Notes under the pieces: generated by a model | What the model was told of the DNA's origin: nothing | Seen by the model: the letters and a program-made list of their open reading frames with translations, nothing else | Databases searched by the model: none | Program-made: the position numbers and the translations under genes | Origin: Magnetovibrionaceae bacterium | Lineage (GTDB): Bacteria; Pseudomonadota; Alphaproteobacteria; Rhodospirillales; JBMYSY01 | NCBI GenBank assembly: GCA_049603795.1 | Contig: JBMYSY010000015.1 | Coordinates: 47,531 to 111,530, forward strand | Reading direction: 5' to 3' | DNA length: 64,000 nucleotides | Shown: positions 3,001-56,948 of the stretch, piece after piece | Numbering within the stretch: position 1 is the first letter of the stretch | Layout of the letters: every line of letters begins with the position of its first letter

Positions 3001-3540
3001 CCAAGGCGGCAGCCGACGAGGCCGCAGACGCGGCGGAGGCTGCAGCCACAGCGGCAACCGCTGCCTACAATTCGGCTTTGGCGCACTTTAATGATGCGAC
3101 AGCCGATCTGGCGGCCTTGAATGCGACCCCGGTCCCCTCGGACGCCGACCAGGCGACGGCGCGGACCACGGCGATTGCCAATGCCACCGCCGCCGTCGCG
3201 GAAGCCGAGGCCGCGAAGGACGAGGCGAATGCTGCTGCCGGCCGGGCCAATACGGCTGCCGGCCTGGCGCGCGCCGCATCCGATTCGGCAAATGCGATTT
3301 CGGGCACGGCCGGTAGCGACGTCACGGATGCCCAGGGCTTCGCCACGACCGCCGCCGGTCAGCGCGATACCGCCGAGGATGAAGAAGCCCTGGCCGAGGC
3401 GCAGGAAAACCGGGCCGAACAGGCCGCCGGTCGGGCCGATGCCCAGCGGGAAGATTACGAGCAATTGCTGGCCCAGGCAGCCCAGGAAGCCGCCGAGGCA
3501 GCGGCCCAAGCCGCCCGTGACGCCCAGGCGGATGCCAAGG
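1..3540 (+). other. Ala-rich low-complexity, probably alpha-helical stalk region of the giant protein (at least ~1,170 aa)
   Basis: The translation is dominated by Ala with D/E/Q/T/S/N/R and has very few Pro, Gly runs or aromatics. Examples: AAAAAKAAAEAAAQQAADDARSSAEAVVQAKADADAAAE, and TAAQTALTAANAARTAADTALT at ~1561-1626, where Thr/Ala fall in a 4-3 spacing. It ends abruptly at DAKDDTHTINEDEADL (~3541), where the first cadherin-like unit starts. Confidence 0.7.
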
Positions 3541-27500: not shown

Positions 27501-30500
27501 CTCAACGGCGGGGATCTGATCATTCAGGGCCCGGGTTCGGTTGCGTCCGGCCAGACCTTCACGGTCGATAACGGCGATCTCACCATCAATGGCGACTTTG
27601 TCGCCAATGGTCCCCTCAGTTTCTTCGATGGCACCATCGGCGGCACGGGCAAGTTGATCGCGAAGACCGGCGGTACCCTTGGCGGCGACTTGACCAACTT
27701 CGCGTTGACGACGACTTTGCAGAACGAAGGGACCTTCACCTTCCCGGGCGGAAGTGGCGATTTCCTGATCTCGGGCAGCGGTGTTCTGGACAACCGCAGT
27801 GGCTCGACCCTCAATTTCACCGGCAATCAGGATATCACCTGGTCCGGGTCGGCGGGCAGCATTCTCAACGATGGTGCGGTGACGTCGAGTTCGACTCTGG
27901 CTGTGATCGATGTGCCCTTCCTGCAATCGGATGATGGGACGCTGACGGTTTCCGATGGCACCTTCCGCCTGAATGAACCGGGCTCCGTGCTCCGCGGGAC
28001 GGCGGATACCGGGGCTTCGGGCTATCTGGAAATCAACGCGGCGACGACCCTGGAAGACGGTTTCCTGCTGAACAGCGGCAATATCGTGCACGACGCCGGG
28101 GTGGCCACGGTCAAGGACATCACCATCGGGGCCTCGGCAGCCTTCCAGTTGGACAGCGGCGACATATCGGTTGCCAGCGGCAAAACCATGGAGGTGGATG
28201 GCACCCTGCAATGGCTCACCGGTGATCTGCTGGATGGTGGTGGCGTCCTGCGCATTGATGGCGAGTTGGATCTGCAGAGCACGGCGGCCAATCGCTTCAT
28301 CTATGGCACGCTCGAGAACAACGGCTCGGCAGAGGTGCTGGGGACCGGCGATCTCTACATTCAGCCGACCGGGGTGATCCGGAACAACGCCGGCGGGACC
28401 TTCACCTTCCTCAGCGACGCCGATACGAGTTTTTCCTCGTCCGCCGGCGAATTTATCAACGCGGGGACCCTGGCAAAGGCGACTGCCACGGGCGCGACCT
28501 ATTTCTATACAAAGCTGACCCAAACGGATCTCGGGACCGTCGATGTTGATAGCGGCCAGATTCGCTTCCTTGTCGACAGCCCGTCCGTTGGCGGAACCTT
28601 CGATGCGGCCAGCGGGGCCGAAATCGAGATTGCTTCGACCATGACCTTCGAGGAAGGCGTGACCTTCCAGGGCTCTGGCGTGACCGAAATCCTATCAGGC
28701 GGGGAGGCTGTCTTTAGCGGCAATGCGGAAGTTGCCTCGGGCGGGACCTTGCAACTGTCCGGTAACGGTCCGCTGACGGTCAATGCCGGCAAGACGCTGG
28801 AAGTCGATGGAACGCTGAATTGGACGACAGGGACCATTGATGGTGCCGGTACGATCCGGATTGATGGAACGGCCCAGGTCAGCAGCAGTGCCAACAAGTT
28901 CCTGGAAGGCGATATCGTCAACACCGGCACGATCACACACACGGGTGCCGGAGATATCTATGTCCAGAGCGGCGCTTCCCTGACGAACGCCATCGGCGGG
29001 ACGTTCAATCTGCAAGGCTCGGGCGAGCTGGCCTATTCGTCAGCACCGGGTGAATTCGTCAATGCCGGGACGATCCATAAAAGCGTGGATACCGGCAGCC
29101 GGAATTTCTATTCGGAATTGACGCAGACCGAGACCGGCTTGGTCGATGTGGATACCGGGTCGCTGTCCTTCCTGGTCGCCAGCGATTCAGTCGCGGGGAC
29201 CTTTGATGCGGCCAGTGGTGCCAGCATTAATTTCGGTGCCACGATGACCCTGAAGGCTGGAACCACCTTCCAAGGGGCCGGTACCCATTCGATCTCGTCC
29301 AGCGGCAAGCTGATCATCGACGGCAGCGTATCGGTGGCGACGGGCGGTACGATGTTGGTCGGCGGCGGCGAGGTTCAGGCCAATGCCGGAGAAACCCTGG
29401 ATATTGACGGTACACTGGAGTGGACTTGGGGCGGATTTTCCGGGGATGGTCTTGTTCGGGTCAATGGTGACGGCGAGCTCTCGTCCGCTTCGAACAAGTC
29501 GCTGCTGGGGACCCTGGAAAACCACGGTTCACTGGCCTTCACAGATACCGGAGATTTATACCTTCAGGCCGGTTCCGTCTTCAGGAATGCCGAAAACGGG
29601 CTGTTTGATATCCAAACGGATTCAGACATCACCTACGGTGCCGCCCCCGGTGATTTCGAAAACCACGGGGTTGTCCGAAAATCTTCCGGCTCTGCGACCA
29701 CCGATTTCGACACGACCTATACTCAGTCCGTCGGGGCAACGCTGGATGTGGATAGCGGCACCATTCAGCTGTTCGGAACCGGCAACACCCTGGCCGGTGT
29801 TGTGGATGCAGCATCCGGTGCTTCTCTCATGGTCAGTGGCAACACGACAGTCCTGGCCAAGACGGTGTTCCAGGGGGCCGGCACCACAGAAGTCGCTCAT
29901 TATACGACCAGCGTTTCCGGCGACGCCTCTGTTGCATCCGATCATACGTTCAATGTCTCGGGCGGTACCCTTACCATTGCGGACGGCATAACCCTGGATG
30001 TGGATGGCTCACTGGATTGGGACGGCGGAACCATCGCAGGCGACGGTGTGGTCATCCTTGATGGCGACGCGACCTTTGCCGGGAATGCCAACCGGACCCT
30101 GACCGGGACGATTGTCAACAACGGTTCGGTCACCATGACCGATGCGGGCGATATCTTTATCGAGACCGCTGGGATCTTCCAGAACGCGCTCGGCGCGACC
30201 TTTGAAGTCCAGGGTTCGGGTGATCTCTCGAATACGACTTCCGCGGGCAGCTTCCAAAACGCCGGCACCTTCATTCGCAACGGCGGCGTTGGGACCATGA
30301 ACCTGGATGTCCTGGCATCCAGCAGCGGCGAGATTCAGGTGCTGACCGGGAATCTTCGCTTTTCCGAGGGGCTGACCAACTCCGGTCGGATCGAGATCGC
30401 TGATGGCGCGACCCTGACCGTATCCGGCGGCAACTTCTCCAACACCGGCATCATCGAAGGGGCGGGGACGTTGAACGTCACCACCTCAGGAACGGTTGCA

Positions 30501-33500
30501 AACTCCGGCGATATCACCGTTGCGACCGACGGCACCGTGGGCGCGCTGAACATCGAGAGCGACTTCGCGACGGATGCCCAGAGTGTCTTCAAGTTCGACC
30601 TGGCTTCGGGCACCAGCTTCGACCATCTGACGGTTGACGATTTGGACCTCTCCGCCTCGACCGACACCATCGAGCTGGATTTCAGCTACCTGCCCTTCCC
30701 GGGGTCAAGCTTCGAAATCATCACCTACACCGGTCTCACCCCGGACACGACCTTCGACAACGTCGTTCATAACCTGGACGACAATTATGAGGTAAACCTG
30801 AGCTACGGTTCGACCGGGCTGACCGTAACGGTCAATCAGAACTTTATCGTCCACGACCAGGCGACGGACGCGGCCTTCCATACGGCGACGAACTGGACGA
30901 ACGACACGCTTCCGACGTCAACCGACGCGGTGCAACTGGCCGCAAATGCTTCCGACGTGACCCACGGGTCCGGGATCACGACGGTCCGCCATCTGGATGC
31001 CGATACGGGACTTGCGCTGACCGGCGGGACGTTGAATGTCAGTGGCGAGGCCGATTTCGCCAGCGGCACCACCCTGACCATGAGCAACAACGCCCTCTAC
31101 ACCACGGGTGGGATGACCACCATCAACGGGACGGCGGTGTTCAACCAAAGCCAGATTTCGTCAACGGACGGCGGGCTGACAGTCGCCTCGGGCGCGACGG
31201 CCAACCTGAACCTCGACACCTCGGGCGGCATCACCTTCAGCGGGATGGATGTGGTCAACAACGGGACGGTGAATGTCCAGGGCGAAACCTATGTGGTTCA
31301 GCTCGCGAGTGCTTCCACCTTCACCAATGCCTCCGGTGCGACTTTCGATCTGAAGGACGATACCGACCTGACCGATTCGGGCTCCGGCAACGAGATGTAC
31401 AACGCCGGGACATTTGTGAAATCCGGTGGGACCGGGTCTGCCGAAATGAATGTCCATCTGGACAACACGGGCACCCTGGACATTGACGCGGGAAGCCTGG
31501 ACATCAACGACGGCTTCACCAATCTGGGCGGCACCATCGATATCGCATCCGGTGCGACATTCCTGCTCGATGCGTCATCGACTGCGAACCCGGCCGTCTT
31601 CGGGACAGGGACCACGATCCAGGGTGACGGTTCGATGGTCTTCTCCAATGGCCTGACCCAGTTCACCGCCAACACGACGCTGGGCGACAATGTGTCCTAT
31701 TCCATGGTGGACACGGGCACCATCGAGCTGGCGCAGAATGTCAATCTGACGCTGGCCAACGATTTCACCTGGACCCGCGGTACGATCGGAGCCAGTGGGA
31801 CCAATGCCAAGGTCATCAATGCGGTTTCCAACCCGCTGACCCTGCACACCGTTCTCGGCAGCGCCACTCTGGACGATGTCGAACTGGAAAACCGGGGCAC
31901 CCTGACCTGGGAATCGGGTTCCGTCTACGGTCTGACGATCGGCAACGGATCATTGCTGGACAACCAGTCCGGTGCCACCATCGTGATCAAGCACGACAAG
32001 AACATCACCGAAAGCGGCTCCGGAAACAGCTTCGTCAACGCAGGCACTCTTCAGAAAACGGTGGGTTCGGGATCCTCCGATCCGACCGATATTCAGGTGG
32101 CGACCACCAACTCGGGTACGATTGATATCGATGCCGGTCGGCTGGAATTTTCGGACTCGTTGACCAACTCGGGTGCGATCGAGGTGGCTGCCGGTGCCAG
32201 CCTGTTCCTGGATGCGACCTCGAACCTGGACATCGCGGCCTTCAATGCCGGGAGCTCCTTCTCGGGCGCCGGTGACGTCTATTTCTCCATGAGCCGGGCC
32301 GAGATCAACACGGACCTGACCCTTGGTGACAATCTGACGTACCACTTGGACGACACTGGTCTGATCCTGGTCGGCTCGAATCGGACCCTGACCCTGGATG
32401 CTGATTTCGACTGGCAGCGCGGCGGGTTTGACGGCTACAGCAGCTCCTACCTGTTCAACAACGCCGGCAATACGGTCACGATGAATACCCAGAACGGGAT
32501 TTCCTTCACCGCGCTGAATGTGGTCAACAGCGGCGTGATGGATTGGGTGGAGACCTCTTCCTACAACCTGACCATTTCCGACGGTGCGGACTTCACCAAC
32601 GCGGCATCGGGGACCTTCTATATCCGCCATGACCTGGACATCACCGAGTCCGGTTCCGGCAACCAGATGACCAACTACGGCACGATCACCAAGACGGCCA
32701 GCGCCGGCGGGTCGGCACGCACCGATATCTCCGTGCCGTTCGAAAACCAGGGCACCATCAACGTGGATGCGGGCATCCTGGAGTTTTCGGATGCCTACGT
32801 CAGCCAGGGTGGCACCATTTCTGTTGCTTCCGGGGCCGAGGTTCTGTTTGACGCCACATCCACCACAGACATCACCCAACTGGATGGCACCACCAGCTTC
32901 ACGGGATCGGGCGACGTCACCTTCTCCATGACAAAGGCCCAGATCGTCGATGATCTGACCCTCGACGGTGGCCTGAATTATCAGTTGGTGGATAACGGTA
33001 CGATTGAAGTCGCCGCTGCAAAAACCCTGACCCTGGATGCCGACTTTGATTGGTCACGGGGCTTTTTCTCTGGCGATGGTGCTTTGGTGAATAACGCCGG
33101 GAAGACGGTGTACATCGACAGCCAGAACAGTGTGTCCTTCGATGCGTTGACGGTGACCAACAACGGCACCTTCGACTGGGAAGCCTCGTCTATCTATAAC
33201 CTGACGATCTCCGGCGGGGCCCAATTCACCAACGCCTCCGGTGCGAGCTTCCTGATCAACCACGATAAGGACATCTCGGAAAGCGGCTCCGGGAACCTGT
33301 TCACCAACGCAGGGCTTCTGCGCAAAGTGACGGGTGACGAATCCACCGGGCGCACCGACATTGGTGTCCCGGTCGTCAATACCGGAACCATTGATGTGGT
33401 GGATGGCATTTTGGAATTCTCGGATTCCGTCACCACGACAGGTTTGATGAGTGTCGGCGCGACAGGCGAGATTGTCTTCGATGCTACGAGTGCCACTACC

Positions 33501-36500
33501 GGGATTGCCACGTTCAACGATGGAGCCAGTTTCTCTGGCTCCGGTATCGTCAACTTCTCTATGTCCAAGGCGGTGGTCGACACAGATCTCAGCCTCGGCG
33601 GTTCGATAACCTATAAATCGAGCGACAACGGCGCGATTGAGGTGACCAGCGGCCATACCCTGACCATGGATTCCGAGTTTGTCTGGTCCCGGGGTAAGTT
33701 CGAGGGGGCGGGTGCCGTCAAGAATGCCTCCGGCAATACCTTGACGATGAACACGTCGAACGCCATCACCATCGACGAGGTGGATTTCACCAACGAAGGC
33801 ACCGCGACCTGGGCGTCGACATCCAGTTACGACGTCGTGCTCTCCAATGGTGCGTCCTTCACCAACGCGGTCGGCGCGACCTTCGACATTCAGCACGATA
33901 GGGATGTCATCGAGTCAGGCTCCGGCAATCTGTTCACCAATGCCGGGACGCTGGTCAAATCTGCAGGCGCGGGCGGCAGCAGCCGGACTGAAATCCAGTC
34001 AGACTTCGTAAACAGCGGTACGCTGGAAATCCAGGCCGGTGTGTTCCGGGCGACCGATGATTTCACCAACACAGGAACGATCCGGATTGCTGATGGCGCG
34101 CGGCTGGATATCACCGGTGCCACCTTCAACAACTCGGGCAGCATCGAGGGCGAAGGCACGATCTTCATCGCCAGTTCGACCGTGGTCACCGATACCGGCG
34201 ACATCACGGTGGCGACGGATGGTACGACGGGTACGCTGTCCTTTGCGTTGGACTTCGAAACCGGTGCCGGCACGGCGCTGAACCTGGATGTGGCCGGGGC
34301 TTCCGATCATGACGTCCTGGATGTGGTCGGTGGCGTGAACCTCTCTGGGGCCGGTGACGTGATTTCGGTCAGCTTCGGTTCCTACGAACCTGTTGCGGGC
34401 CAGACCTTCACGGTGCTGACCAATGACGGATCGGATGCGATCTCGGGCAGCTTCGACAGCATCATTCATGACCTCGGCACCGATTGGAAATTGACGGCGG
34501 ATTATGCCGGTGGCGACGGCAATGACCTGGTCCTGACGGTCGAGGCCAATGGCCCGACTGTGAACGCGGACTCGCTGACCGGCACCTCTGGTTCGGATAC
34601 GATTGATGGCCTGGCCGGCAATGACACGATCTTTGGCCTTGCCGGAAATGACACCCTCAAAGGCAACGACGACAACGACATCCTCTACGGCGGCGATGAC
34701 AACGACCTGCTGCAGGGTGGTGCGGGCGATGACACCATGGAAGGCGGCGCGGGCGATGACATCATCCAGGGCGGCTCCGGTACCGATTTCGCGGACTACC
34801 GAAACGCGACAGGTGCCGTCCATGTTCAATTCGCCAATACGTCGTCGCAATCCGTCGGCGGCGGGCAGGGGGCCGACACCATCAGCCTTGATGTTGAAGG
34901 CTTCCTCGGCTCGGCTTACGGCGATACCTTCGAAGACATTGCTGTTTCGTCCTACGGCAACGTCTTTTATGGCTATGGCGGGGATGACTCGCTCCATGGC
35001 GGCGGTGGCGTCAACTCGCTCTATGGCGGGGATGGTAACGACCTTCTGACAACCGGCGGACAAGGCAGCCTCTATGGCGGTGCAGGCAATGACAGCCTCG
35101 TTGGCGGTATTGGCAACGACCTTTTGGACGGCGGAGCGGATAACGACACCTACGAGATCAGTCGAAGCGATGACGTGATCTTGGACAGCGGCGGCACCGA
35201 TACCGTCGTGTTCAATTCGACAGAAGGTGGCGACTACGGCGGTGACGGTGTCATTCGCGATGTCTACCGAAGCGGCGGCGATATCGTCTTCCGCACCAGC
35301 CTTGACTACGGGGGCTATGACTCCACCCTCACGGTCGCCGATGGTGTGATCGAAACTTTTGGATATCGGGAGAACGACGAGGGCTCTATTACAACGGATA
35401 CTTGGTCAATCTTTTCGGGAACCAACGCGAGTTCGGAAACCACGGACCAGGCCATCATCGGTACCAGTGGTGCTGATGTCCTGGTTGGGGGAAGTGGAAA
35501 TGACATCCTTTCGGGTAGCGATGGCAATGACGACCTTACAGGTGGCGCGGGCGATGACCTCTTCCTGATTGGCGGCGGGAGCAATACTGTCGATGGCGGT
35601 GCAGGGCAGGATGAGCTCTATATCGGGGCCAATCTAAGCTACAACATCAACCTTGTGACCGGCACGGCCACTTGGTCGAGCCTGACCACGACGTTCTCGA
35701 ACATTGAAGATGTGACCGGCGGTGCCGGGGCTGAGACGATCATCGGGGACAACAACGCCAACCGCCTGTCAGGTGGTTACGGGGCGGACACGATCTCCGG
35801 TGGCGGTGGCGACGACACCATCGAAGGCGGCAAGTTCAACGACATTCTGAACGGTGGTGCCGGCGACGACACGATTAATGGGGGTGCAAATAACGACACC
35901 ATTGACGGTGGCGATGGCATCGACATTGCGGAGTTCACCGGAAACTACGCCGATTATACCATCACGGCAGGTGATGCGGGGCTGACGGTCTCCGGCACCG
36001 ACGGCACAGACATTCTGACGGATATCGAACGGCTGCGGTTCGATGATCAGACGATTGCCGTCCCCGAAGTCCTCGGCACAAATGCGGCCGGTGGCTTCGC
36101 GCAGTTCGACAAGGCGGACCAAACCTACCTCTCGGCCGCCCATGACTCGGCGCAGCAGCTGGAAAGCTGGACGATCGAGGCCTGGATCCAGACGGAAGAC
36201 GACGCCAACGTGATCGGGCGTATCGTGTCCAAGTCCGATGGTGCCAACAACTCGCATTTCTCCCTCTATACCTGGGGCGGCAAGGTCTGGGTTCAGGGAA
36301 CCGAACCGCCGACCACCCACGTAGACCTTGGCAGCACGACCACGATCAGCGACAACCAGTGGCACCACGTGGCCGGTACCTATGACGCCGCGACCGATAC
36401 CTTGAAGATCTACGTGGATGGCGTTTACGAGGGCCAGCAGACCAATGTGGGGCCCTTCGTTTCGGCGGGCGGAAACCTTGAGATCGGTCGTTGGAGTGAC

Positions 36501-39500
36501 AGCGTCGGCCAGTACTATGACGGTGCGATGGACGATGTCCGCATCTGGTCGGAAGCCAAGACCGAAGAGCAAATCCGCGAGGGCATGAACCGCCCGGTCA
36601 GTGAGCCGACGACGGAAAGTACCCTCGTTGCCTCTTACGATTTCGACAGCGCGTCAGGCACCACTGTCACTGACGGCTCGGCAAATGGCTTCGATCTTTC
36701 CACGGTTTCCGGCCAGGCACCGAACTTCACCTCGCCCAATGAGATCATGTTCAGCGTCGATGGCTCGTCAGGCCAGGGGGCGTCGGGCGATCTGTTGCTG
36801 ACGCAGACCAACGACCTTTCCATCGAAGTCACCTTCATGTGGAACGGGACCGATACGTCCGGCGACATGGTTCTGGCCTACAACGGGACCTACAGCACCA
36901 ACGGTTACGGGCTGATTTTGGACCGGACCGGGGCGGACACCTACAAGCTGCAGGGTGAATTGGGCGGTATCGGCGGGCTGCATACCGATTTCACGGTGAA
37001 GGCCGGCGAAATCGTCCAGGCAGCCCTGGTGCGCGAGAGCGGAACCTGGAAGATCTACGTCAACGGCGAAGATGAAACGATCACGGCAGGCACCATAACG
37101 ACCAATCCGGTCACGCCCACCGGCAGCTTCCACGTGGCGACCACGGGCTCGTCCGCACCGTTCTCAGGCCTGGTGTCGGATGTTCGTGTCTGGTCCGATG
37201 CCCGCACCTCGACCGAGGTTGCCAACAATCGCAACGGCTTGACCGCATCCCAACCCGAACAGGGCCTGGAAGCTTGGTTCCCGCTGACCGAAGGATCCGG
37301 CACGACTTTGGTCGATGCCTCCGGAATGGGGCATGATCTGACGGTCTCCGGCGGCAACTGGTACAGCGGTATTCCGCCGGTCTATGACGACGGGGCCGTA
37401 ACGGTCATCGAAGACCAGCCTTTGACCGGGGTGATCGGAACCTACAGTTATGCCTCCGGTGACACCCTGACCGTCAGCCTGGTGGGTGCGGATGGCGGTG
37501 CTGCCAAGGGGGATGTCAGCCTCACCCAAAGCGGTTCCTCCTGGCTCTATACCTACACGCCGGACGAAAACGCCACAGGTGCGGACAGCTTCTTCATCGA
37601 GGTTTCCAACGGCACGACAACAACCCGCGAAGAAATCTCGGTCAGCATTACCGGTGTGGCGGATGATCCGGAGGTATCGGGCCTCGGCCTTTCTGACGGC
37701 GCAATTACCCTGGACGGCAGCGATGACTACATCGATATCCCGGACAGCGGCGGACTGAACAAGGCGCTCGATGCCGACTACACGGTCGAGGTCATGTTCC
37801 GGACGGATCATGATTCCACGGGCGAGCTCCATCGGATCCTCACAAAAGTATCGGATGACCATACCTCTGCGGAAGCCTATTCCTTCCGGATTGCCAACAA
37901 CGAGCTGAGCTTCATCGCCGGCTATGACAGCAATGGTGCAACGAGCGGCGGCGCGGCTTCTGTTTCGGTCGGTTCACTCGGAACCGTTAATGACGGTGAG
38001 TGGCATCGGGCTTCGGCAACTTACGATAGCGCCACGAGCACGGTAACCCTGTACCTGGATGGTGTCCTCCAGGGTTCGACGACCATGCCGGAAGACAACC
38101 TGGCATCAACGAATTCAAATCCTGTCACCATCGGTCGCTTCAGTTCCGTTCATGGGCAGTACTACAACGGCGATGTTGCCGATGTACGTGTCTGGAACAC
38201 GGCCCTGGATGGAACAGCCATTGCGGCCTCCGATGATATCCGGATTGCCGACCCGACCAATGAAGCCAACCTGATCGGCTATTGGAAGCTGGACGAAGGC
38301 GAAGGTGCCTCGATCGCAGACGCTTCGGGTAACAACCTGAGCGGCACGCTGTACGGACAAACCTCCGGCTCCGAGACCTGGGCGGATGACAGCCCGTTCT
38401 ACTCGGAAACCGTTTCCAGCCTCAGCGTCATCAAGGATCAGGCCGAGGTCGCGACCCTGCAGCTTCTGGACGGCGACGGCGACACGGTTACCGTCAGTTC
38501 TTACTTCTCGCCCAGCAACGGTACCCTGGTGGACCTGGGCAATGGCCAGTTCCGTTACACGCCCGACGCCGGCTATACCGGTGCCGACAGCTTTACGGTC
38601 AACCTGACCGACAGCAGCGGCGCGAGCGTGGCGCGGACCATCAACATCACCGTTGCCGCGCCGCCAGTGGTCCTTGGTGTCACGCAACCCGCTGATTTCG
38701 TTCAGTTCGATGGCGTGAACGACCACATCAACGTACCGCCCGACCTTGGCATCACGACAGGCGATTTCACGGTGGAAGGCTGGATTTATCTGGACAGCCT
38801 CGGCAATTACAGCACGGTCTTTGACAACCGCTCGGATGCCAACAACGGGTTCCTGTTGGGTGTGGACGACCAGAACAAGCTGACCGGTCTTATCAACACC
38901 ACCGGTTCCGATGTGACGATCCAATCGTCCGGAAGCCTGTCTGCCGATACCTGGTATCACGTTGCCTTCTCCGGTGATCGGGACGGCAATGGGACGATCT
39001 ACCTGGATGGCGAGAATGTGGGCTCGGCGAGCATTTCGGCCCAGTCCGGCAGCGTCGAAGTCCCGAGCGGTCAGACAGCCGTGATCGGCGGGGCCGCGGG
39101 GACCAGCACGTCTTGGGCTCCCTTCAACGGGCGCTTGTCGGATATTCGTCTGTGGTCAGACCTGCGCACGGCTGAAGAGATCGACACCTACAAGACAGCC
39201 GAGATCGAGAACCCGGGTACGACGGCTAACCTTGTCGCCTATTGGCCCTTGGATGGGGATACGGTCGACGAGACCACCGGCGCTGTGACCGATCTGTCCT
39301 CGGGAAGCCATGACGGCACGCTGGGTGCGTCGTCCGCTTCGGGTACAGATGATCCGTCGCTCCAGGAAATGCACTTTGCCAAGGGCCTGTCGGTCACCGG
39401 TTCGACCAGTTCCTATGGGGCTGTGAGTGATTCCGGCGGTGTCTTCAATACCTCCGAGTTTACCGTTGAGGGTTGGGTATACCTCGATGATCTGAGCACG

Positions 39501-42500
39501 ACGCGCGAAATCTTCGAGCGCGGCGGCGGATCCTCCCACGCGCTTCGGGTCAACACCAACGGGGCGCTGAGCTGGTATGTCTACCAGGGTATCTCGATGT
39601 CTTCGAGCGCCGGAGATGTGACGACGGGCGGCTGGCACCATGTGGCCGCCACCTTCAAAGACAACGAATCCGCATACCTTTATGTGGATGGCGAGGAAGT
39701 CGCCTCCACGACTTCCGGGGTCGGGACGTCCTGGAAGTCCGGGACCACGGCGGACTTGGGACGGGGCTTTGACGGGCAGTTGGCCGACATGCGGGTCTGG
39801 AGCGTTCAGCGCAGCCAGGCCGAAATCCAGGCGGACATGAACCACTTCCTGAACCCCGATACCACCGTCGGGCTTTCTGCGAACTGGCGCTTCGAAGACG
39901 GTGACTCGGCTGTCACGGCAGAGGATGAATCCAGCAGCAACCTGGATGCGACGCTGAACAGTGCTTCGCTGGAAGACACCACGCGTGTCCAGGCGACGGC
40001 AGATATCATCACGGCGGAAGATTCGGCCTATGGCGGCGTGATCCAGGTCGATCAGGTCGATGGCGTCACCTACACCTATGGCGTAGCCGCCAATGGCGAT
40101 CCATCCAATGGCACGCTGACCGTGGACGCGAACCTCGGCACCTTCGTCTACACGCCGGATGCCAATTACAATGGCTCCGACAGTTTCACTGTGACCGTGA
40201 GCAATGGCACCCTGACAACGACGAAGACCATTACCGTTTCGGTCACATCGGTTGAAGACCGTGTGACCTCTGACGTCACCGACTCTGGCGGCACGCCGAT
40301 CACGTCGTTCAGCACGGACGAGGATACGCCCTACGCCGGCAAGGTAACCGCCGTCGATCCGGAAAACACCACGCTCACCTATAGCGTCGATACCGACCCC
40401 GCCCACGGAACGCTGACGATCAATTCCTCGACCGGGGACTGGACCTACACGCCGGACGAAGAATACCGGGGTTCGGATGCCTTCGCGATCAAGGTCGTCG
40501 ACGGGGCGGGGCTGTCTTCCCTGAGCGAGATTTCCGTTGCGGTGAATTCTGTCGACGATGCGCCTGTGATCACCGGTGTCCGTTCCGACGATGGTCCGCT
40601 GACCTTCGATGGGTCGGATGACGTGCTCTCCGCCTCCGCGGTCAGCTTGGGAACGGGCGACTTTTCGCTGGAAGCCTGGATCTGGATCGATCCGGCGGCA
40701 ACCGGCGAGAACACGATTCTGGATACTCGGGACAACTTCACCGGCGTGGTGTTTGGCGTGAGCTCTTCCGGCACGTTGGCACTGGGCCTGAATGACGGAA
40801 CCAATTCGGTCGAGTTGTTCGGGACCACGGCGATCCAGGAAGCCCAATGGGTCCATGTCGCTGCCACGGCGGATCGGTCCGGGAATGGTTCACTGTTCAT
40901 CAATGGAACCGCTGAAACGCTGAGCGGCGGCGGAACGACGAAGGATGTTTCCTCAGTAAACCTGACCTTGGATGGATCACAGCCGACGTTGATCGGCGGG
41001 CCGAGCGCCAATTCTACGGCGACGACCTGGGACCCGTTCCACGGCAAGATTTCCGATGTCCGGGTCTGGTCGGATCTGCGAACCTCGACGGAAATCTCGG
41101 ATGCCGCATCCGGAGATGCTCTGGCCGACAGTACGGGGCTTCTGGCTTCCTGGGATCTGGAGGCCGTGCGCCAGGGCAAGGTTATCGATACTTCCGGCAA
41201 TGGTCATGATGCCACGCTTGGCGCGGATGCCGGGGCCGGTTCGGACGATCCGTCGCAAACCGTCACCCATTTCGAACGGGCTGCGACCTTTGAGGGGCAA
41301 ACCAGTTCGCGTATCGATATCGCGGACAGCAGTGGCGACTACAACACCAGCGAGTTCACGGTCGAGGCCTGGATTTATGTCGATGATCTGAGCTCGAGTG
41401 CGACAATCTTTGACCGGGGTCCGGGAACATCCCACAGGCTGACCCTGAATACCAATGGCTCGCTCTACTGGTATGTGTATCAGGGCGGGACGGCGACGTC
41501 CCCGGCGGGCTCGGTGACGGTCGGGGAATGGATTCACGTCGCGGCCACCTTTACCGATGACGACTCCGCCTACATCTATGTGAACGGCGAGGAGGTTGCC
41601 TCTGATACCTCCGGTATCGGAACCTCCTGGAAGGGTGGTTCATCGGCCCTGATCGGCGAAAATCTGGATGGTCAGATGGCGGACGTCCGGGTCTGGAGCG
41701 AGGCACGAACCCAGGCCGAAATCCAGGCCAACATGAATACCTTCGTGGATGCCGGTTCCAACCCGACCCTGCAGTCAAACTGGCGTCTGGATGACGATGC
41801 GAACAGCACGACCGCAGTGGATTCGGGCAATGCCGGGAACAACGGTGGCCTGAACGGTTCTTCGTCCATCAGTACGGCCCTGCCGCCCAGCTTCGTGAAC
41901 GCGGCTGACGGTGTTTACACCGATGAAATGACGGTGCTGGAAAATGTGGCCTTTGAAGGATCCGTCGGCTCGCCGGACGGCGACAAGGAAGGTCTGACGT
42001 TTGACCTGGCCAGTGGTGGCGAGCCGTCAAACGGTACGATCACGCTGGACGGCGGGACCGGTCAGTTCACCTACACGCCGGACGACGACTACACCGGTGC
42101 AGACAGTTTCACGGTCGAGGTGTCGGACGGGACAACGACCACCTCCAAGACCATCTTGGTCAAGGTGGCGGCTTTTGACGAAGCGCCTCAACTGCAAGGC
42201 ATCGCCGCAGATCTGCCAGTCCTGCAGTTCGATCCGGACGAGACCATTATCGGCGGTGTGCGTGGCACCTCCGACGCGCTGGCGATCATCGGCGATATGA
42301 CCCTGGAAGGCTGGATCAATCCGCGCGAATTGCCGACAGGCTCCGACATCTACCTGATTGCGAGCTTCCGGGGCGAGGGTGATACGGCGGCGGCCAACGA
42401 GCTCTACTCCATCGGGCTGAACGCCGCAGGCGATCTGGTCTACCAGCACGAATACGCCAACGGGTCGAAAGAAACCCATGTCTGCGATGCCAACCTGACA

Positions 42501-45500
42501 GCAGGCGATTGGGCGCATATCAGCCTTGTGCGGGACGACACGGGATCGGGCGGTACGGTTCAGCTTTATGTTGATGGTCAGGCCGCCGATACGCCGAAGA
42601 CCTATACCAATTCACCCACCGGTGGGGCGGACAGCGAGTTCTTCATGGGGCTGGCCGGGACCGACGTTAAGGGCTTTGACGGTCAGATGTCAGGCCTGCG
42701 TCTCTGGAGTGAGGCGAGAACCGCAACGGAGGTCGAGGCAGCCTACGATCAGGTCATCACCGACCCAACGGCCGAGACGACCCTCGTGGCCGACTGGCGA
42801 ACCAGCGAAGACGAACTGCGCACGCTCACCGACCAGACTGGTAACGGTAACGCGCTGGTGGTCGGCAACATCACTTCTGCTGCCGAACACAACGTCAACA
42901 CACTGGCGAGCTATGTCAGTTTTGATGGTGTTGATGATGCGGTTCGGATTGCATCGGCCGACCTGACGAACCTGAACGGTTCGGCTGCGCAGACCTGGAC
43001 GGCCTGGTTCAGAACTGACGGCAACTGGGACACCGATAACGGCAGCGGCGGCGAAACCGCCATGCTGATGGGCCGGACGGACAGTTCTTCTTCTCTCAAT
43101 GGCGTCAATGTCCTGATCAGCAAGACGAACGGGGCCCTATCCGTCGAAGCCAAATCCGGTACGACGTCCGTTCATTCGACCTCCGACACCTCCACAGACG
43201 TGACAGACGGCGAGTGGCATCACGTTGCCGTTGTAATGGATCCGGATCTTGGCGCGGACGGTGCGCTGACACTGTATGTGGATGGTCAGGAAGCCGGCAG
43301 TTCCACGGGAGCCGGTACCTGGTCCATGAACGGCAACGACTTCCGTATCGGTGACTCCCTTGTCCAATACTGGGAAGAGTTCGTTGGCGATGTTGCCGAA
43401 GTGAACATCTACACCGGCAGCCGGTCGGCGGCTGAGATCGCCGCCGAAGCCCAGGCGGGTGTCTATCCGGATGACAACACGCTCGCCCTGCAACTCGGGT
43501 TCGATCAGGGGACGGGCGGTACGGCCTTCAACAGCGCTGTGGGCACTGGTGCTTTCGCGGACGGCCACGGGACCCTGTCGGGTGGAACCGTCTGGCACAA
43601 TGCGGCACCATTGGGGATCACAACGGCCAATGCCAAGGGCCTGGACCTGAATGGCACCTCGACCTCGGTCGGCATCAGCAGTGTTACTTTGCCGAACAAT
43701 GCTTTCACTGTCGGCCTCTGGGCAAAGCTGGATTCTTCCAGCGGTTACGAAGATCTAATCCGGCTTGGTGGGACCGATGGGGCCTTTGCGATTTCGGTTG
43801 GCTCTGAAGGCGAGATCCAGTTCTCCGTCGGCGACGGTGTCTCTGGCGATACGGTCAACAATGCGGGCAACCATGGTTGGCAGTATGGCGAGTGGCATCA
43901 CTGGACCTTGTCCTATGACGGGTCGACGGCAACGCTATTCATGGACGGCGCTGCGGTCGCAAGCGTCTCCCCCATCAGCCTGACCGTTTCGGATGCGGAT
44001 GGTGCCATGACCATCGGCAGCGGTGCGGGCTTCGCGGACGGCATCATCGGCGAGGTGACGCTGTTCAATGCCGCCATGCCATCAGATCAGATCGCAGAGC
44101 TTCAGTTCGGCCCCAGCGATGATACCTTGCCCTATCTGATCGGCCATTGGCCGCTCGACGAAGGCACGGGAACCATCGCCCGTGACATTTCGGGCAATGC
44201 CAATCACGGAGCCATCACGGACCCGGTCTGGAGTGAAGCTGCGGCACCTGCAGTCAGCCAGGTGCAATTGGTCGAAGAGGATCAGGCGGTTCGTGGCCAG
44301 TTCGTGATTGTTGATCCGGACGGCGGTTCGACGACGATCTCCAGCCTGACGGTCAGCGATCAGCCGGACAACGGCTCGGTCACGGTGACCCAGGTCGCGA
44401 GTGGTGTTTACGAATACGTTTACAGCGGGAACAAGGACTTCAACGGGACCGACAGCTTTACGGTCACCATGACCGACAGCAACGGCCTGGAAAGCCAGCG
44501 CACCGTGACCATGGACGTGCGGCCACGCAACGACGGCCCGGACACCGGTCAGCCGGGTGGCGCGCTGGACTTGGGGGCGACCGACTATCTGCACAGCTCG
44601 AATACGGCTTTCAATCCGGGGACATCGGACCTCACGGTCGAAGGCTGGTTCTATTACGATGGAACGAACCCCAACGCGACGCGCACGATTGTTTCCAAGG
44701 GCAGCGGGACGACCCTTGATCCCGGCTGGAACATCGCGATCGACGACGATGGCTCCACCAGCACGCTCAGCATCAAGGTTGCCGGGGTTGGCGGGAACGC
44801 TGTCACGCTGGACAAGGATCTGACGGGTAATATTCAGACCGGTTGGCACCATGTTGCCATGGTCATCGACCAGACGGCGGATACCGTGACCGCCTACTTG
44901 GACGGCTCGACCAGCGGGTTCAGCGGCAGCCAGGACCTCGGTGCCCTGACGACAACCATTACGACCACAAAATCGTTCGTGGTCGGTGCCGAGGACGAGA
45001 CAGGATCGTTTAGCGCACACTTCAAAGACCGGGTCGACGAGATCCGCGTCTGGAGCGAGGCGCGCACGGAAGATCAGATCCTGGAGAACATGGAGAGCAT
45101 CATCTCTTCCAGCTCCGAGTCGAGCCTTGTGGCGCAGTACAGCTTCGAGAACGCGTCCAGCCTGGGCCAGGATTCCGCGGACAGCTCTGCGATCAATCTC
45201 ACGGCCCAGGGCGGTTCTCAGGCCGGTGCGCCGCCGGCCATGGCACCGTTCCACAACGAGGTGTTGGATGTCGCGGGCGACGGCTATGTCAGCCTGTCCG
45301 GTTCAGCAGATCACGATCCGGGCACCGGCTCGGTGACGGTCGAGATGTGGTTCCAGAACTTCGATTCCAATGGCAGCCGCCATTACCTGATCGACGAGGG
45401 CAACCTCTACTCCGCCTATATCGAAGACGGCACCCTGGTGGTCGATTTGACCACGGATACGCCGGCCAGCAATGCCAACAGTGCCCAATGGCGCTACGAA

Positions 45501-48500
45501 CTCGGTACCCAGGATGAAGACTGGCACCACCTGGCCCTGGTCATCGACCAAAGTGGCTCCAGCGGCGAATTCCGGGCCTACCTGGACGGCGCGGCGACGG
45601 GCTGGACCCAGGGTGATTACAACAGCAGCTTCACCAAGGGCACGCTGACCGATTCAGCCAGCCTGGTGTTCGGCGCGAATTCGGGTGGTCTGGAAGGCTT
45701 CGACGGTCTGATCGATGACGTACGAGTCTGGAATTTGGCCCGCACGGAAGCCGACATCGCCAAGGACATGGACCGCAATCTGGAAGGCAACGAGACCGGT
45801 CTGACCGGCTATTGGACCTTCGACGAAGGTGTCGGCACCCTTGTCTATGATCTTGCAGGAACCCACAACGGGACTGTCACCAATGGCGAATTCCTGAGCC
45901 AGCGCAGTCAGGTCCTTGTGGAACCGGGCGATCCGATCAGTGTCCGTCTCACCGCAGCCGATGTGGATGGTGACGAGCTGACCTACAGCATCACCTCTGT
46001 CACCGGCGGTGCCGCCACCGTGAACGGTGACAGCGGCGTCATGACCTTTACCGCACCGGAGACAACGGGCAATTACACGGTCAACTATCAGGTGACGGAT
46101 CCGGATGGGCGCTCCAACACGGGTTCGGTGTCGTTCAGCGTCGCCCTGCCGGAAGTGGCGATCCAGGGGGCGGAGGCCGATACCACCGTTCTACAACTGG
46201 ATGGCCAGAACGATTTCCTCGATGTCCAGGGCGATCTCGGCACACTGGAAGACTTCACCTTCGAGACCTGGATCAACCTCCGCGAATTGCCGCCGACCTC
46301 GAATGACCTCTATTCGCTGCTCTCCCAGAACGGCTGGGCTCTGGGCGATCTGCACGTGAACATTCTGAGCGACGGCACGATCGAATTTGCCCGCAACGGC
46401 GATAACCCATATGCGACGACGAGCGATCTGTTCACCGGATCGGGCCAGGGCCTGTTGAACCAGTGGGCCCATGTGGCGATCGTGGCCGATGGATCGGCCA
46501 ATACCTTTGATATCTACGTGAACGGCGATCATCTGGAGACCGTCAACGATACCATCGGCGGTACCTTCGACCTGTCAGATGCTTCTTTGGGCGCCTGGCA
46601 GGCCGACAGCGGACTCGTGAGCCGCCATCTGCCAGCCTCGCTCGATAACACGAGGCTCTGGTCCGATGTGCGCAGCGCCGACGAAATCAAAGCCAGTTTC
46701 CAGCTTTCCGATCCGGTTTCCAAAGACAACCTGACAATGAACCTGACCTTTGATCAGGAATCGGGCGGGGCCTACGTGGACAGTTCCGGCAACAGCCACC
46801 ACGGTGCCTTTACCGAGCGGGCCGGCGCTGGCCAGGCTGGCGCGCCGAACGGCTATGCGACCGCACTGAACGGCTCGACGGACTACATCGTTACGGCAGC
46901 GACGGGAACCTATACGGATTTCACGGTCGAATCCTGGGTCCGCGTCGATACGATGCCGGGCAGCGAGGATGTTGATGTGCTGTTCGGAACCGACAATTTC
47001 GTCGGTGGCGACTTCACGGTTGATCTGTATCACAAGTCCGGCGACGGCAAGACCTACCTTCGCTATGCACCGGGTGTCGGGGCTGGAAGTGCGGTCGCGG
47101 AAGTGGAAATCGACCCGACGACGTTTGAAGGTCTGTTCAACCATGTTGCCGTTAGCTACGACGCGAACAGCGATACGATGAAGTTTTATGTCAACGGCAG
47201 CCTCGTGCATACGGACAGCCCCTACGGTATCGCTGCCGTGCAGGTCGATGGTTTCCGAGTGGGCACCTATAATGACGGAACGAGTAATGCCCGGTTCCTC
47301 GATGGTGCTTTTAGTGATGTTCGCTTCTGGTCGGATGTTCGCAGCGAGAGCGACATTCAAAACTCGATGTATACCGATACGCCGACCAATGCCGACAATC
47401 TGGTCTTCAATTACAAGCTGGATGGTCAGGCGGACGGTGGCGTTGCTGACAGTTCCGGCAATTCGAACAACGGCACGATCCAGGGCCAGGCCGGGACGAT
47501 TGTGGGCGGTGTCCAGGAGCTTTCGCCGCCGCCGGCAGCGCTGACTTTCGACGGTACGGATGACCGCATCGAAGTCACGGACCTGCAGGCTGCTCAGAAT
47601 GCCTTCACCTTCGCCTTCTGGGGGAATGTGCAGTCGTCCTATGCGGGTTCGGCCCACGACTACGCCATTCAGTGGGGCGACAATGGCGACAACAGCGCCC
47701 TGCGGTTCGAATATGGGCCGGAAGGTACGATTTTCGCTTCCATCGGCAACGGCAGCACCCTTGTCGAACACTCGGGCGTTGGTGTGGATGTGGGATGGGG
47801 CTACGACGAATGGCACCACTGGGCGGTCAGCTACGACGGCAGTCGGGTTACCATCTACATGGATGGTCAGGAGGTGAACTCCTTCGCGGCCACGCTCGAT
47901 ATTACGGGGGCCGACGGCAAGCTGCGCGTGGGCGACGGTTACACGACCGGAGCTGAATTCGATGGCCAGATGGCGGACTTCCAGTACTGGTCCACGGCGT
48001 TGGGTTCCAGCGCGATCAGTGCCGTCAAGAATGGCAACATCACCGGGAACGAGGACGGCCTGGGGCTTTGGTGGCCGATGCAGGAAGGCTCCGGAACCGA
48101 TCTCTTCGATGCTTCGGGTAATGGCTTCGATGCAACGGTGACGGGGGCAACATGGGCGGCGGATGCCAACCCGGATGTCCACGACGAACAGGCCGTTGTC
48201 GAGGCTTTCCAAGGAGCCCCAGTTACCGGTCAGGTGGCAGCGACGGATCTTTCCGGCGACACGATCACCTTCTCGGCTTCCGGTGCCGACGGAGGGGCGG
48301 AGTTCGGCACGCTGACGGTCGGCTCGACCGGTATCTACACCTACACGCCGGATGACGGCTTCTTCGGTACCGATTCCTTTACCGTGAAGGTGACCGCCGG
48401 GGGCGAAGAGGAGTACCAGCGGATCACGGTCAACGTGGCCCCTGCCGGGGATCGCGAAATCGATAGCATATCCGATTTGGACGGCATCAACGGCTTCGAG

Positions 48501-50444: not shown

Positions 50445-50473
50445 ACGGTTAGACGTTTTAGAGTTCAGGCACC

Positions 50474-51616
50474 ATGGCGAAAGCAAGTACCACAGCGACC
50501 GCGAAAGCGCGCAAATCCCCCACCAAAAAGCCGCGGAAACGCTCGGCAAAGGCTGAACCCGCGCCTGCGCCATCTGGCGAATTTCAGATTTATGCCTCGC
50601 CACACTTTGCGGGCTGGCTGCACGAACAGAACGTTAGCCTCGGCTTCACGACCTATCAGGCCGGTAAGTTATTTCTGATCGGACTGAAAGAAACCGGTCA
50701 GATCTCGGTGGAGGAACGTTCCGTTGACCGCTGCATGGGCATCGCGGCCCATGACAACGCGCTCTATGTTTCGAGCGACTATCAGATTTGGCGGTTCGAG
50801 AATGCGCTCCTTCCGGGCCAGACGGTGGATGGCTATGATCGTGTCTACCTGCCCAAGACCAGCCATGTCACCGGCGCGATTGACGTACACGAGATGGACC
50901 TGGACGGCGAAGGCTATCTCGTTTTCGTCAATACCAAGTTCTCTTGCATCTCGACTTTGAATGACCGCTATAGCTTCGAGCCCATCTGGTGGCCGCCCTT
51001 TATCTCAAAGCTGGCTCCGGAAGACCGTTGTCATATGAACGGCATGGCGCTGGTTGATGGCCAACCCTCCTATGTTACGGCCGTCGCTGCCACGGATACG
51101 CCGGAAGGGTGGCGGGAAAGACGCACTGATGGCGGCGTGGTGATCGATGCCTTCGAAAACGAGACGGTCCTGGGCGGGCTCTCCATGCCGCACAGCCCCC
51201 GCTGGCACCGCAATGGGCTCTGGCTGTTGGAATCGGGTACCGGTTGGTTTGGCCGCGCTGACCTGGACGCGGGCGAGTTCGAAGAAATCACTTTCTGTCC
51301 GGGCTATGCGCGCGGCATGGCAATGTATCGGAACTATGCCGTTGTCTGCGTCTCGCAGCCCAGGGACGAGGCGACCTTTGGCGGCCTTCCCCTCGATGAC
51401 AATCTTGAGCGGGCAAAACTGAAAGCGGCCTGCGGCATTCTGGTGATCGACATCGAGCGGGGCGAGATCGTCCACTGGCTTCGGCTAGACGGCCCCATCC
51501 AGGAACTCTTCGATATTGCACTGATGCCTGGCGCAACGCGCCCGCGAGCCGTGGGCTTCAAGGGCGACGAGATCAAGTATGCCGTCTCCCTGCCGCCGAC
51601 GGTGGATGGCGGCTGA
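50474..51616 (+). CDS. TIGR03032 / DUF4915-family protein of unknown function, with a Lys/Arg-rich N-terminal tail
   Basis: A 380-aa ORF begins 29 nt after the giant gene's stop. Motifs I recognise from this family: F.GWL.E..VSLGFTTYQAGKLFLIG, YQIWRFENAL, FVNT.FSC, PPFISKLAPEDRCHMNGMA, LSMPHSPRW..G.LWLL.SGTG, FCPGY.RG. The N-terminus MAKASTTATAKARKSPTKKPRKRSAKAEP is strongly basic. Confidence 0.8.
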   Translation: MAKASTTATAKARKSPTKKPRKRSAKAEPAPAPSGEFQIYASPHFAGWLHEQNVSLGFTTYQAGKLFLIGLKETGQISVEERSVDRCMGIAAHDNALYVSSDYQIWRFENALLPGQTVDGYDRVYLPKTSHVTGAIDVHEMDLDGEGYLVFVNTKFSCISTLNDRYSFEPIWWPPFISKLAPEDRCHMNGMALVDGQPSYVTAVAATDTPEGWRERRTDGGVVIDAFENETVLGGLSMPHSPRWHRNGLWLLESGTGWFGRADLDAGEFEEITFCPGYARGMAMYRNYAVVCVSQPRDEATFGGLPLDDNLERAKLKAACGILVIDIERGEIVHWLRLDGPIQELFDIALMPGATRPRAVGFKGDEIKYAVSLPPTVDGG

Positions 51617-54345: not shown

Positions 54346-54348
54346 GAA

Positions 54349-54855
54349 ATGGTGACTGACCACATGGCCCAGGCCGATTTCCTGACAGAGCCGCAAGATG
54401 GCCGGGAATCGAGCAGTACTCAGTTTGTGACCTTCACCTTAGGATCGGAAGGTTACGGCGTAGATATCCACACGGTTCGTGAAATTCGGGTCTGGTCCGA
54501 AACTACAGATCTTCCAAATGCACCTCAGGATGTGAAGGGTGTCATCAACCTTCGTGGCGTCATCGTACCCGTATTTGATCTGCGGTTTCGATTTGGCAAA
54601 GGTGCCACGACACCGTCCAAACGGCATGTCGTCGTCATCATTGCCTTGACCGACCACTTAATCGGGATTCTCGTGGATGCTGTTTCGGACATCGTCGAGG
54701 TTCAGCCAAGTGAACTCCGCCCTGTTCCCGAGTTGGAGTTTGGCAGGGAGAGTGATTTTTTGAAGGGGCTCGTCGCCATAGGTGATCAGATGATTGCGAT
54801 CCTTGATCCGCAGACATTGATGCGGGGCCATGTGGTTGCCCAGTTGACCGGATAG
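54349..54855 (+). CDS. cheW: Chemotaxis coupling protein CheW
   Basis: 168 aa. The start lies 3 nt after the MCP stop, preceded by GGGAAGAG. The CheW-like core reads QFVTFTLGSEGYGVDIHTVREIRVWSETTDLPNAPQDVKGVINLRGVIVPVFDLRFRFG...LVDAVSDIV. An alternative start at 54364 is possible. Confidence 0.88.
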   Translation: MVTDHMAQADFLTEPQDGRESSSTQFVTFTLGSEGYGVDIHTVREIRVWSETTDLPNAPQDVKGVINLRGVIVPVFDLRFRFGKGATTPSKRHVVVIIALTDHLIGILVDAVSDIVEVQPSELRPVPELEFGRESDFLKGLVAIGDQMIAILDPQTLMRGHVVAQLTG

Positions 54856-54919
54856 GTCGTTGGTTTGAGCGTGATAACGAAAAAGGCTCCGCACCGCGCC
54901 ACATCGGTAAGGCCTGTGA

Positions 54920-56947: not shown

Positions 56948-56948
56948 G

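Follow-up and report, generated by a model that had tools for sequence, protein, structure and literature searches.

A giant open reading frame (ORF) of an uncultured, marine-type Magnetovibrionaceae bacterium (Alphaproteobacteria), known from a metagenome-assembled genome (MAG), encodes a protein with 23 laminin G-like (LamG) domains. We favor, with moderate confidence, the view that this protein is secreted to the cell surface and that its C-terminal part presents a multivalent LamG array for ligand binding (adhesion). The window analyzed here is the whole stretch of 64,000 nucleotides (nt) at positions 47,531 to 111,530 of contig JBMYSY010000015.1 (assembly GCA_049603795.1). In the ORF list, the giant ORF extends from 27 to 50444 and comprises 16,805 amino acids (aa), counted from the first in-window start. 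Its frame runs past the left edge of the window and the N terminus lies outside, so that 16,805 aa is the minimum length of the protein and 23 LamG domains is a lower bound for the full-length form.

The domain count comes from several concordant searches. With the ORF divided into four chunks, Pfam hmmscan finds 2, 6, 2, and 13 Laminin_G_3 (Pfam ID PF13385) stretches, 23 in total, with whole-chunk scores of 91 to 832 bits against the curated gathering score of 27.6 bits. An iterated hidden Markov model (HMM) seeded with four of the protein's own copies converges immediately on the same 23 domains, at per-domain E values of 5e-27 to 5e-45. When scanned singly, every one of the 23 units matches PF13385 at an E value of 1e-3 or lower (the best being 3e-29), and nine of them also touch Laminin_G_2. 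Such a recurrence is far beyond chance. The cores fall into two clusters, 8 at nt 8448-21836 and 15 at nt 36120-48017; with the trailing segment described below included, the respective units cover nt 8430-21980 and nt 36102-48161. A first-pass annotation of this DNA, made from the letters alone, had proposed fifteen LamG-like domains at 36069-48450, about 8 more between 8400 and 22000, and about 23 in the whole protein. These numbers hold, the last one exactly for the visible part, by Pfam and by our own HMM, and the PF13385 scan suggested as a check recognizes every copy. The literal sequence motif that was said to recur 15 times is recovered at the profile level; written as strict regular expressions, its parts yield only 5 to 14 matches each.

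The fold of the units was predicted with AlphaFold2 for the pair G12-G13, using an alignment of ten internal pairs as input. The resulting model is almost entirely β, with a mean predicted local distance difference test (pLDDT) score of 81. Foldseek comparison of the pair with the PDB returns the LG4-5 pairs of laminin α1 and α2 and neurexin LNS pairs (E values of about 1e-13 for both), as well as Gas6. The Foldseek probability is 1.00 for laminin LG, neurexin LNS, PAPP-A LG, and the pentraxins. The single domains match PAPP-A LG, with a root mean square deviation of 3.3 to 3.8 Å over about 240 columns, as well as pentraxins, dimethylformamidase, and the Hc domains of clostridial toxins. In searches of PDB sequences, a profile built from the 23 units matches 4dqa (E value of 3e-25), 4qvs (E value of 6e-23), and PAPP-A2, and also the C-terminal module of an arabinanase, pentraxins, and the CBM40 modules of sialidases. 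The earlier assignment to the concanavalin A-like/Laminin_G_3 fold is borne out by the PF13385 matches, the AlphaFold2 and Foldseek results, and the PDB profile matches alike, and the predicted LamG (concanavalin-like jelly-roll) nature of the units can be considered secure.

The gaps between successive LamG cores are either short, with about 65 aa, or long, with about 165 aa or more. The ~65-aa gap represents a conserved trailing segment, roughly L..yW.ldEG.G....D.SGNG.dGtl, that occurs behind each of the 23 cores, also where a cadherin-like domain comes next, and is absent 5' of every first-in-group LamG copy. In the G12-G13 model, the sole disordered stretch (residues 215-229, pLDDT of 42 to 47) is located after the trailing segment, and G13's own copy of the segment, at the free C-terminal end, is confidently structured. 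Because the segment follows all 23 cores, precedes the disordered linker, and is similarly placed in 4dqa, the true LamG unit consists of a ~155-aa core, a short helix, and, at the C-terminal end, a strand-hairpin segment, 190 to 225 aa in total. In descriptions of Laminin_G_3 domains, the strand-hairpin W.ldEG.G....D.SGNG.dGtl usually forms the N-terminal start. In the giant protein, it always lies on the C-terminal side of the core (e.g., at 39183-39326), so that the correct construct boundaries differ from the Pfam envelope.

The longer gaps contain spacer domains. An HMM of the long linkers detects 27 tandem-95/Big_9/cadherin-like domains across the visible protein, of which 8 belong to the region of the fifteen C-terminal LamG copies. 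The spacers score 145 to 243 bits with NF012211 (cutoff of 90 bits) and also match Big_9 (PF17963) and Cadherin_5 (PF17892). These tandem-95 domains, of ~95 aa each, stand between groups of one to three LamG units and after the last unit. With T for tandem-95, the order in the C-terminal array is RTX, G9-G10, T, G11, T, G12-G13, T-T, G14-G15, T, G16-G17-G18, T, G19-G20, T, G21-G22-G23, T, and LamG units and tandem-95 domains together account for 93.8% of aa 12026-16144. The description of the LamG domains as separated by cadherin-like spacers is therefore correct for the groups (and for the end of the array) and does not extend to each neighboring pair, as 8 of the 14 junctions in this array are spacer-free and the ~65-aa linkers are the trailing segment.

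The median pairwise identity among the 23 copies is 23%, with values from 13 to 55%, the closest copies being G13 and G15 (55%). At the DNA level, similarity is only motif-sized, 40 to 94 nt at 60 to 88% identity, and the copies, judging by their sequences, are old paralogs. Supermodule pairs are the most alike: G5/G7 (39%) go with G6/G8 (35%), and G12/G14 (33%) go with G13/G15 (55%), suggesting that the array grew by duplication of spacer-LamG-LamG blocks, followed by long divergence. Recent tandem amplification and an assembly artifact are ruled out, as there are no long near-identical DNA repeats. A diversity-generating retroelement was also considered and set aside, since the differences are those between old paralogs and gene scans reveal no reverse transcriptase.

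The location of this divergence was examined by laying the DSSP classes of the model onto the 23-copy alignment. Loops contain nearly all insertions and deletions: the gap fraction is 0.36 for non-strand columns and 0.04 for those in strands (p = 9e-16). The two classes differ little in residue entropy (2.55 and 2.32 bits, respectively; p = 0.05), mean pairwise identity is 20.6% in loops and 26.3% in strands, and the conserved framework amounts to only about 10 positions. The proposed contrast of variable loops and conserved strands thus stands with respect to insertions and deletions, the loops being indeed the variable part, and is overstated with respect to residue variability, which in loops is only slightly above that in strands. 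This pattern is typical of any old β-sandwich family.

The C-terminal end of the protein and its composition bear on its likely location. The seven FG-GAP motifs that follow the array are spaced by about 63 to 76 aa and match PF01839 (115 bits, 5 stretches), suggesting a 7-blade β-propeller. They are followed by four RTX nonapeptides at aa 16657-16702, about 100 aa before the end, with a HemolysinCabind match; the last 250 aa are similar to RTX regions in known substrates of type I secretion, and the ~100-aa C-terminal tail is presumed to be a type I secretion signal. The visible protein has a mass of about 1.72 MDa and a pI of about 4.05, with 14% Asp plus Glu and a single Cys residue. The RTX blocks, the FG-GAP/RTX C terminus, the low pI, and the single Cys all indicate the character of a secreted adhesin, and the protein looks like a type I-secreted RTX adhesin. 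The LamG array of this acidic, nearly Cys-free, RTX-containing protein is placed toward the C terminus, just before the propeller, a setting that fits a surface-binding role.

In the RTX adhesin paradigm, proteins are exported, fold with Ca2+, are retained at the cell, and display their ligand-binding modules distally. By analogy, the giant protein would be exported C terminus first by a type I secretion system, would fold on binding extracellular Ca2+, and would be associated with the cell through the N terminus that lies outside the window. The LamG array and the propeller, at the distal end, would then form a multivalent ligand-binding (adhesion) region, in which the cadherin-like domains may serve as Ca2+-stiffened spacers. 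A putative lectin or adhesion function of the LamG units is plausible, and the ligands of the individual copies are probably no longer identical.

Proteins with similar units are abundant. Among 1.84 billion representative proteins, 500,419 match the 23-unit profile at an E value of 1e-3 or lower; most matches extend over the full profile, trailing segment included, and the best ones are to proteins of 4,000 to 8,000 aa with 15 to 35 matched stretches. The best-matching metagenomic giants share the LamG-LamG-spacer pattern. One of them, P0245 (6,799 aa), combines LamG/Big_9 arrays with a β-helix-like region and an FG-GAP/RTX C terminus that is 35% identical over about 650 aa. The same C-terminal plan, at 33 to 37% identity, is found in a 6,229-aa protein of Thalassospiraceae LMO-JJ14 (locus L006) and in a metagenomic protein annotated as 27,080 aa (locus L009, positions 1-9972; Ga0315336_1000056 of JGI 3300032132), whose C terminus is 33% identical over about 660 aa. 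The annotated length of the latter indicates that the protein encoded in the window may far exceed the visible 16,805 aa. P0245 and these two proteins share LamG/tandem-95 arrays and a DUF4915 neighbor. Several LamG subtypes match a P0245 copy better than any paralog inside the giant protein; thus, G16 matches P0245 copy Q17 at 110 bits and its best internal paralog at 58.5 bits. These cross-protein matches provide weak support for functional subtypes that might have been maintained for a long time. Positional orthology of the LamG copies with those of P0245 was rejected: reciprocal best matches exist for 9 of 23 copies and are non-collinear. A homolog search with LamG12-15 returned no ortholog, and all matches listed were under 1,860 aa.

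Features of the giant ORF and of the gene that follows it, in window coordinates
Feature	Coordinates	Strand	Basis or remark
Giant ORF	3..50444	+	Stop-free from base 3; Pfam domains throughout
Ala-rich low-complexity region, 1,173 aa	3-3545 (aa 1-1173)	+	No family match
LamG unit G1	8430..9137	+	Own HMM, PF13385, trailing motif
LamG unit G2	11232..11936	+	Own HMM, PF13385, trailing motif
LamG unit G3	14001..14651	+	Own HMM, PF13385, trailing motif
Two Laminin_B (PF00052) domains	About 15546-15845, 16821-17189	+	Pfam
LamG unit G4	17406..18080	+	Own HMM, PF13385, trailing motif
LamG G5-G6, direct tandem pair	18567..19934 (boundary near 19244/19269)	+	Own HMM, PF13385, trailing motif
LamG G7-G8, direct tandem pair	20628..21980 (boundary near 21320/21351)	+	Own HMM, PF13385, trailing motif
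Thr/Gly/Asn-rich region, 4,026 aa	22638-34715 (aa 7538-11563)	+	No Pfam/NCBIfam match
Internal RTX nonapeptide blocks	34716..35879	+	Directly 5' of G9; Pfam and repeat motifs
LamG G9-G10	36102..37364 (36102-36719, 36753-37364)	+	Own HMM, PF13385, trailing motif
Tandem-95/Big_9/cadherin-like spacer	37395..37682	+	Pfam, NCBIfam, own HMM
LamG G11, singleton flanked by two spacers	37704..38366	+	Own HMM, PF13385, trailing motif
Tandem-95/cadherin-like spacer	38418..38663	+	Own HMM
LamG G12-G13, AlphaFold2-modeled pair	38700..39971 (38700-39326, 39402-39971)	+	Own HMM, model
Two tandem-95/cadherin-like spacers	40002..40577 (40002-40271, 40305-40577)	+	Own HMM
LamG G14-G15	40599..41867 (40599-41240, 41289-41867)	+	Own HMM
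Tandem-95/cadherin-like spacer	41925..42200	+	Own HMM
LamG G16-G17-G18	42237..44237 (42237-42878, 42915-43583, 43641-44237)	+	Own HMM
Sole Cys codon of 16,805 visible residues	nt 42483 (aa 14153)	+	Inside LamG unit G16
Tandem-95/cadherin-like spacer	44262..44552	+	Own HMM
LamG G19-G20	44562..45902 (44562-45224, 45264-45902)	+	Own HMM
Tandem-95/cadherin-like spacer	45909..46160	+	Own HMM
LamG G21-G22-G23	46191..48161 (46191-46832, 46860-47501, 47541-48161)	+	Own HMM
Tandem-95/cadherin-like domain 3' of last LamG unit	48195..48458	+	Own HMM; its end fits the end coordinate of the first-pass annotation
FG-GAP region, seven GD(I/V/F)NGDG(F/L/I)xD Ca2+ motifs	48474..49976	+	Pfam and motif search
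Terminal RTX block (4 nonapeptides) and ~100-aa C-terminal tail	49995..50441	+	Motifs, C termini of relatives
DUF4915/TIGR03032 gene	50474..51616	+	Starts 30 nt after the giant ORF stop; profile match

Outside the C-terminal array, the protein begins, as far as visible, with the Ala-rich region, which is probably helical. It is followed by six tandem-95 domains and a He_PIG domain, then by ~800 aa of RTX blocks, and then by four isolated LamG units with match-free regions between them and by the two Laminin_B domains. Laminin_B is best known from animal laminin and perlecan; 93-nt DNA repeats of 73% identity (15749-15841 and 17036-17128) are found in or near these two domains. The Thr/Gly/Asn-rich region consists of three blocks of about 1,200 to 1,500 aa, each closed by a similar ~110-aa module, and reads like a β-helix of the kind seen in autotransporter passengers. 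In total, about 6,000 aa of the giant protein have no Pfam match. An antisense ORF of 1,342 aa (46575-50603, minus strand) overlaps the giant gene, and many further minus-strand ORFs of 150 to 830 aa lie inside it; these are most likely shadow ORFs of a coding region with ~60% GC and not genes.

The gene that follows the giant ORF belongs to the DUF4915/TIGR03032 family. The loci compared (the window, L001, L002, L003, L006, L007, L008, L009, L010, L011, and a contig of JGI 3300072015) belong to alphaproteobacteria, to Anabaena and Methylobacter, and to several metagenomes. Nine of 10 loci have the DUF4915 gene directly beside a gene for an FG-GAP protein, mostly an RTX-bearing one as well; besides the giant ORF, these neighbors have 6,799, 6,229, 27,080, 4,047, 2,882, 1,562, 1,465/1,220, and 871/778 aa. 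In the tenth locus, the gene comes after one for an autotransporter. The linkage between DUF4915 and FG-GAP/RTX proteins looks real. Family members are about 55% identical across phyla, with 72 invariant alignment columns. The structural model (pLDDT of 86, predicted template modeling score of 0.84) has YWTD and Kelch propellers as the best PDB folds, with template modeling scores of about 0.5, and the protein is predicted to be a six-blade β-propeller. It has no obvious signal peptide, no sequence relative in the PDB, and no PADLOC match; a scan of genome contigs with DUF4915 finds one distant locus only, and a literature search for DUF4915/TIGR03032 found no paper in the library covered.

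Farther downstream, the interval 51757-61484 encodes a CHASE3/HAMP chemoreceptor and CheW on the plus strand. Its minus strand carries genes for a histidine kinase and a histidine phosphatase-like protein and adjacent genes for monomeric-type and homodimeric-type isocitrate dehydrogenases. The isocitrate dehydrogenase and DUF4915 proteins each have a 100% identical counterpart in a Magnetovibrionaceae MAG, and the next best isocitrate dehydrogenase matches are in a Rhodospirillales MAG (82%) and in Magnetospira sp. QH-2 (80%).

Several results weigh against a type I-secreted adhesin with a multivalent LamG array. The NCBIfam models of type I secretion C-terminal targets do not match the giant protein, and the 13.5 kb downstream contain no gene for an ABC transporter, a membrane fusion protein, or TolC (sequence upstream of the ORF is not part of the window). 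A search for DNA repeats shows that the extender of near-identical Ig-like repeats, usual in canonical RTX adhesins, is absent. No close ortholog has been characterized, and a multi-specificity lectin array, as a putative property of the units, finds no direct support, as the solved relatives in the superfamily bind very different ligands or have none established. Finally, the loops are only modestly more variable than the strands, with no specific signature of diversifying selection on a binding face.

The main rival, which can be held only tentatively, assigns the LamG units a mainly structural or self-associating role. They would engage in protein-protein contacts within a Ca2+-stabilized fibre, a surface layer, or a matrix scaffold, without lectin activity, and the terminal FG-GAP propeller would be the real ligand binder. 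The near-equal divergence of strands and loops, with only about 10 conserved framework positions, is in line with such a role, and so are the eukaryotic LG/LNS domains, the fold matches found by Foldseek, which are often involved in protein-protein contacts. Among the relatives, moreover, the order of the array is not kept and the FG-GAP/RTX C terminus is (33 to 37% identity), and DUF4915 tracks FG-GAP/RTX proteins rather than LamG content. However, 23 highly divergent copies would make a costly spacer, given that RTX extenders are normally built of near-identical Ig-like repeats. The conservation of some LamG subtypes across related proteins and the many carbohydrate-binding modules in the superfamily also count against this rival.

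An extended version of the multivalent array, which we regard as rather unlikely, would tie it to the neighboring gene. The LamG units would form a combinatorial multi-ligand surface, with subtypes kept across a family of giant alphaproteobacterial proteins (6,229 to 27,080 aa), and this family, together with FG-GAP/RTX proteins of several phyla, would depend on the highly conserved DUF4915/TIGR03032 propeller as a dedicated, hitherto undescribed partner. Toward the FG-GAP/RTX module, this partner might have the role of a chaperone, of a secretion factor, or of a modifying enzyme in the cytoplasm.

It is very improbable that some LamG units are catalytic, as concanavalin-fold glycoside hydrolases or polysaccharide lyases, and that the protein is a giant surface machine for polysaccharide degradation. 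The Pfam description of the concanavalin clan includes glucanases, and one unit has a sub-threshold Polysacc_lyase match (PF14099, E value of 4e-6) and one has a weak 3keto-disac_hyd match. However, these enzyme matches are confined to single copies and are much weaker than Laminin_G_3 on the same residues, the curated cutoff of a glycoside hydrolase or polysaccharide lyase family is never attained independently of the LamG match, and the top structural matches are the non-enzymatic LG, LNS, and pentraxin modules. Nor is it at all likely that the array serves as the receptor-binding part in a giant toxin or in a protein for contact-dependent effector delivery (compare the LamG-like HcN domain of clostridial neurotoxins and MARTX): the weak Toxin_R_bind_N (PF07953) matches and the structural matches to botulinum and tetanus Hc domains reflect generic jelly-roll similarity and are weaker than Laminin_G_3, and the RTX repeats are common to RTX toxins, but no effector, protease, pore-forming, or translocation domain is detected in the 16,805 aa, leaving only the small possibility offered by the N terminus outside the window and the regions without a Pfam match.

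With the giant protein, an abundant, uncharacterized class of giant LamG/cadherin-like surface proteins gains a very large new member. Its architecture is common and does not represent a new kind of system: with some 500,000 proteins matching the profile and arrays of 15 to 35 copies in many metagenomic proteins, the LamG finding by itself is unsurprising. Giant surface proteins claim an unusual share of genome and resources, and their ligands are almost never known outside a few pathogens and model organisms. The present protein offers a clean study case, with precisely delimited LamG units, including the C-terminal boundary needed for soluble constructs, and could be used to test whether the LamG arrays of environmental bacteria are lectins. 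The conserved pairing of DUF4915/TIGR03032 with FG-GAP/RTX proteins is a more useful lead than the LamG array and may be the more novel one in the window.

Among known systems, the RTX adhesins LapA of Pseudomonas, MpIBP of Marinomonas primoryensis, FrhA of Vibrio cholerae, and SiiE of Salmonella are generally known to share with the giant protein their size, acidity, and near-absence of Cys, as well as RTX nonapeptides near the C terminus, C-terminal ligand modules, and β-sandwich spacers. In contrast to these adhesins, the giant protein lacks a near-identical Ig-like extender, contains RTX blocks in its interior as well as a β-helix-like region of ~4,000 aa, and has 23 LamG units in place of one or two modules of the PA14, vWFA, or carbohydrate-binding module type; no type I secretion, LapG, or LapD genes are visible within the window. 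In the library covered, literature searches found nothing that links RTX adhesins with LamG and nothing on giant genes in Magnetococcus or RTX in Magnetospira.

The LG/LNS tandems of eukaryotes (laminin α LG4-5, neurexin LNS1-6, agrin, and Gas6) have the same jelly-roll fold by Foldseek. They too are tandem arrays with small spacer domains and bind their ligands in a Ca2+-dependent manner. However, sequence identity to them is only 10 to 15%, and the bacterial units belong to Laminin_G_3 and not to Laminin_G_1 or Laminin_G_2, even though 9 of 23 touch the latter. The closest solved sequence relatives are PDB entries 4dqa (BACOVA_03559, a putative carbohydrate-binding protein) and 4qvs (an S-layer domain protein), single-domain structural genomics proteins with no demonstrated ligand. 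In 4dqa, the trailing motif is C-terminal to the core, as in the giant protein, whereas in 4qvs it is N-terminal.

The metagenomic giants P0241-P0259 contain the same LamG unit with the trailing motif, in the same LamG-LamG-spacer pattern and in 15 to 35 copies. These giants, with P0245 and the L006 and L009 proteins, are about 25 to 35% identical to the giant protein and range in size from 6,229 to 27,080 aa; function is not known for any of them, and the order of LamG subtypes is not collinear between the giant protein and P0245. In archaea, Laminin_G_3 is the commonest domain of huge proteins, where its function is "not understood" (PMC11573180), and large predicted surface proteins of DPANN archaea with multiple LamG domains have been interpreted as carrying host or carbohydrate recognition modules (PMC10266531). 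Compared with the protein described here, these archaeal LamG proteins belong to another domain of life, differ in secretion and anchoring, and have far fewer copies, up to five (PMC10266531).

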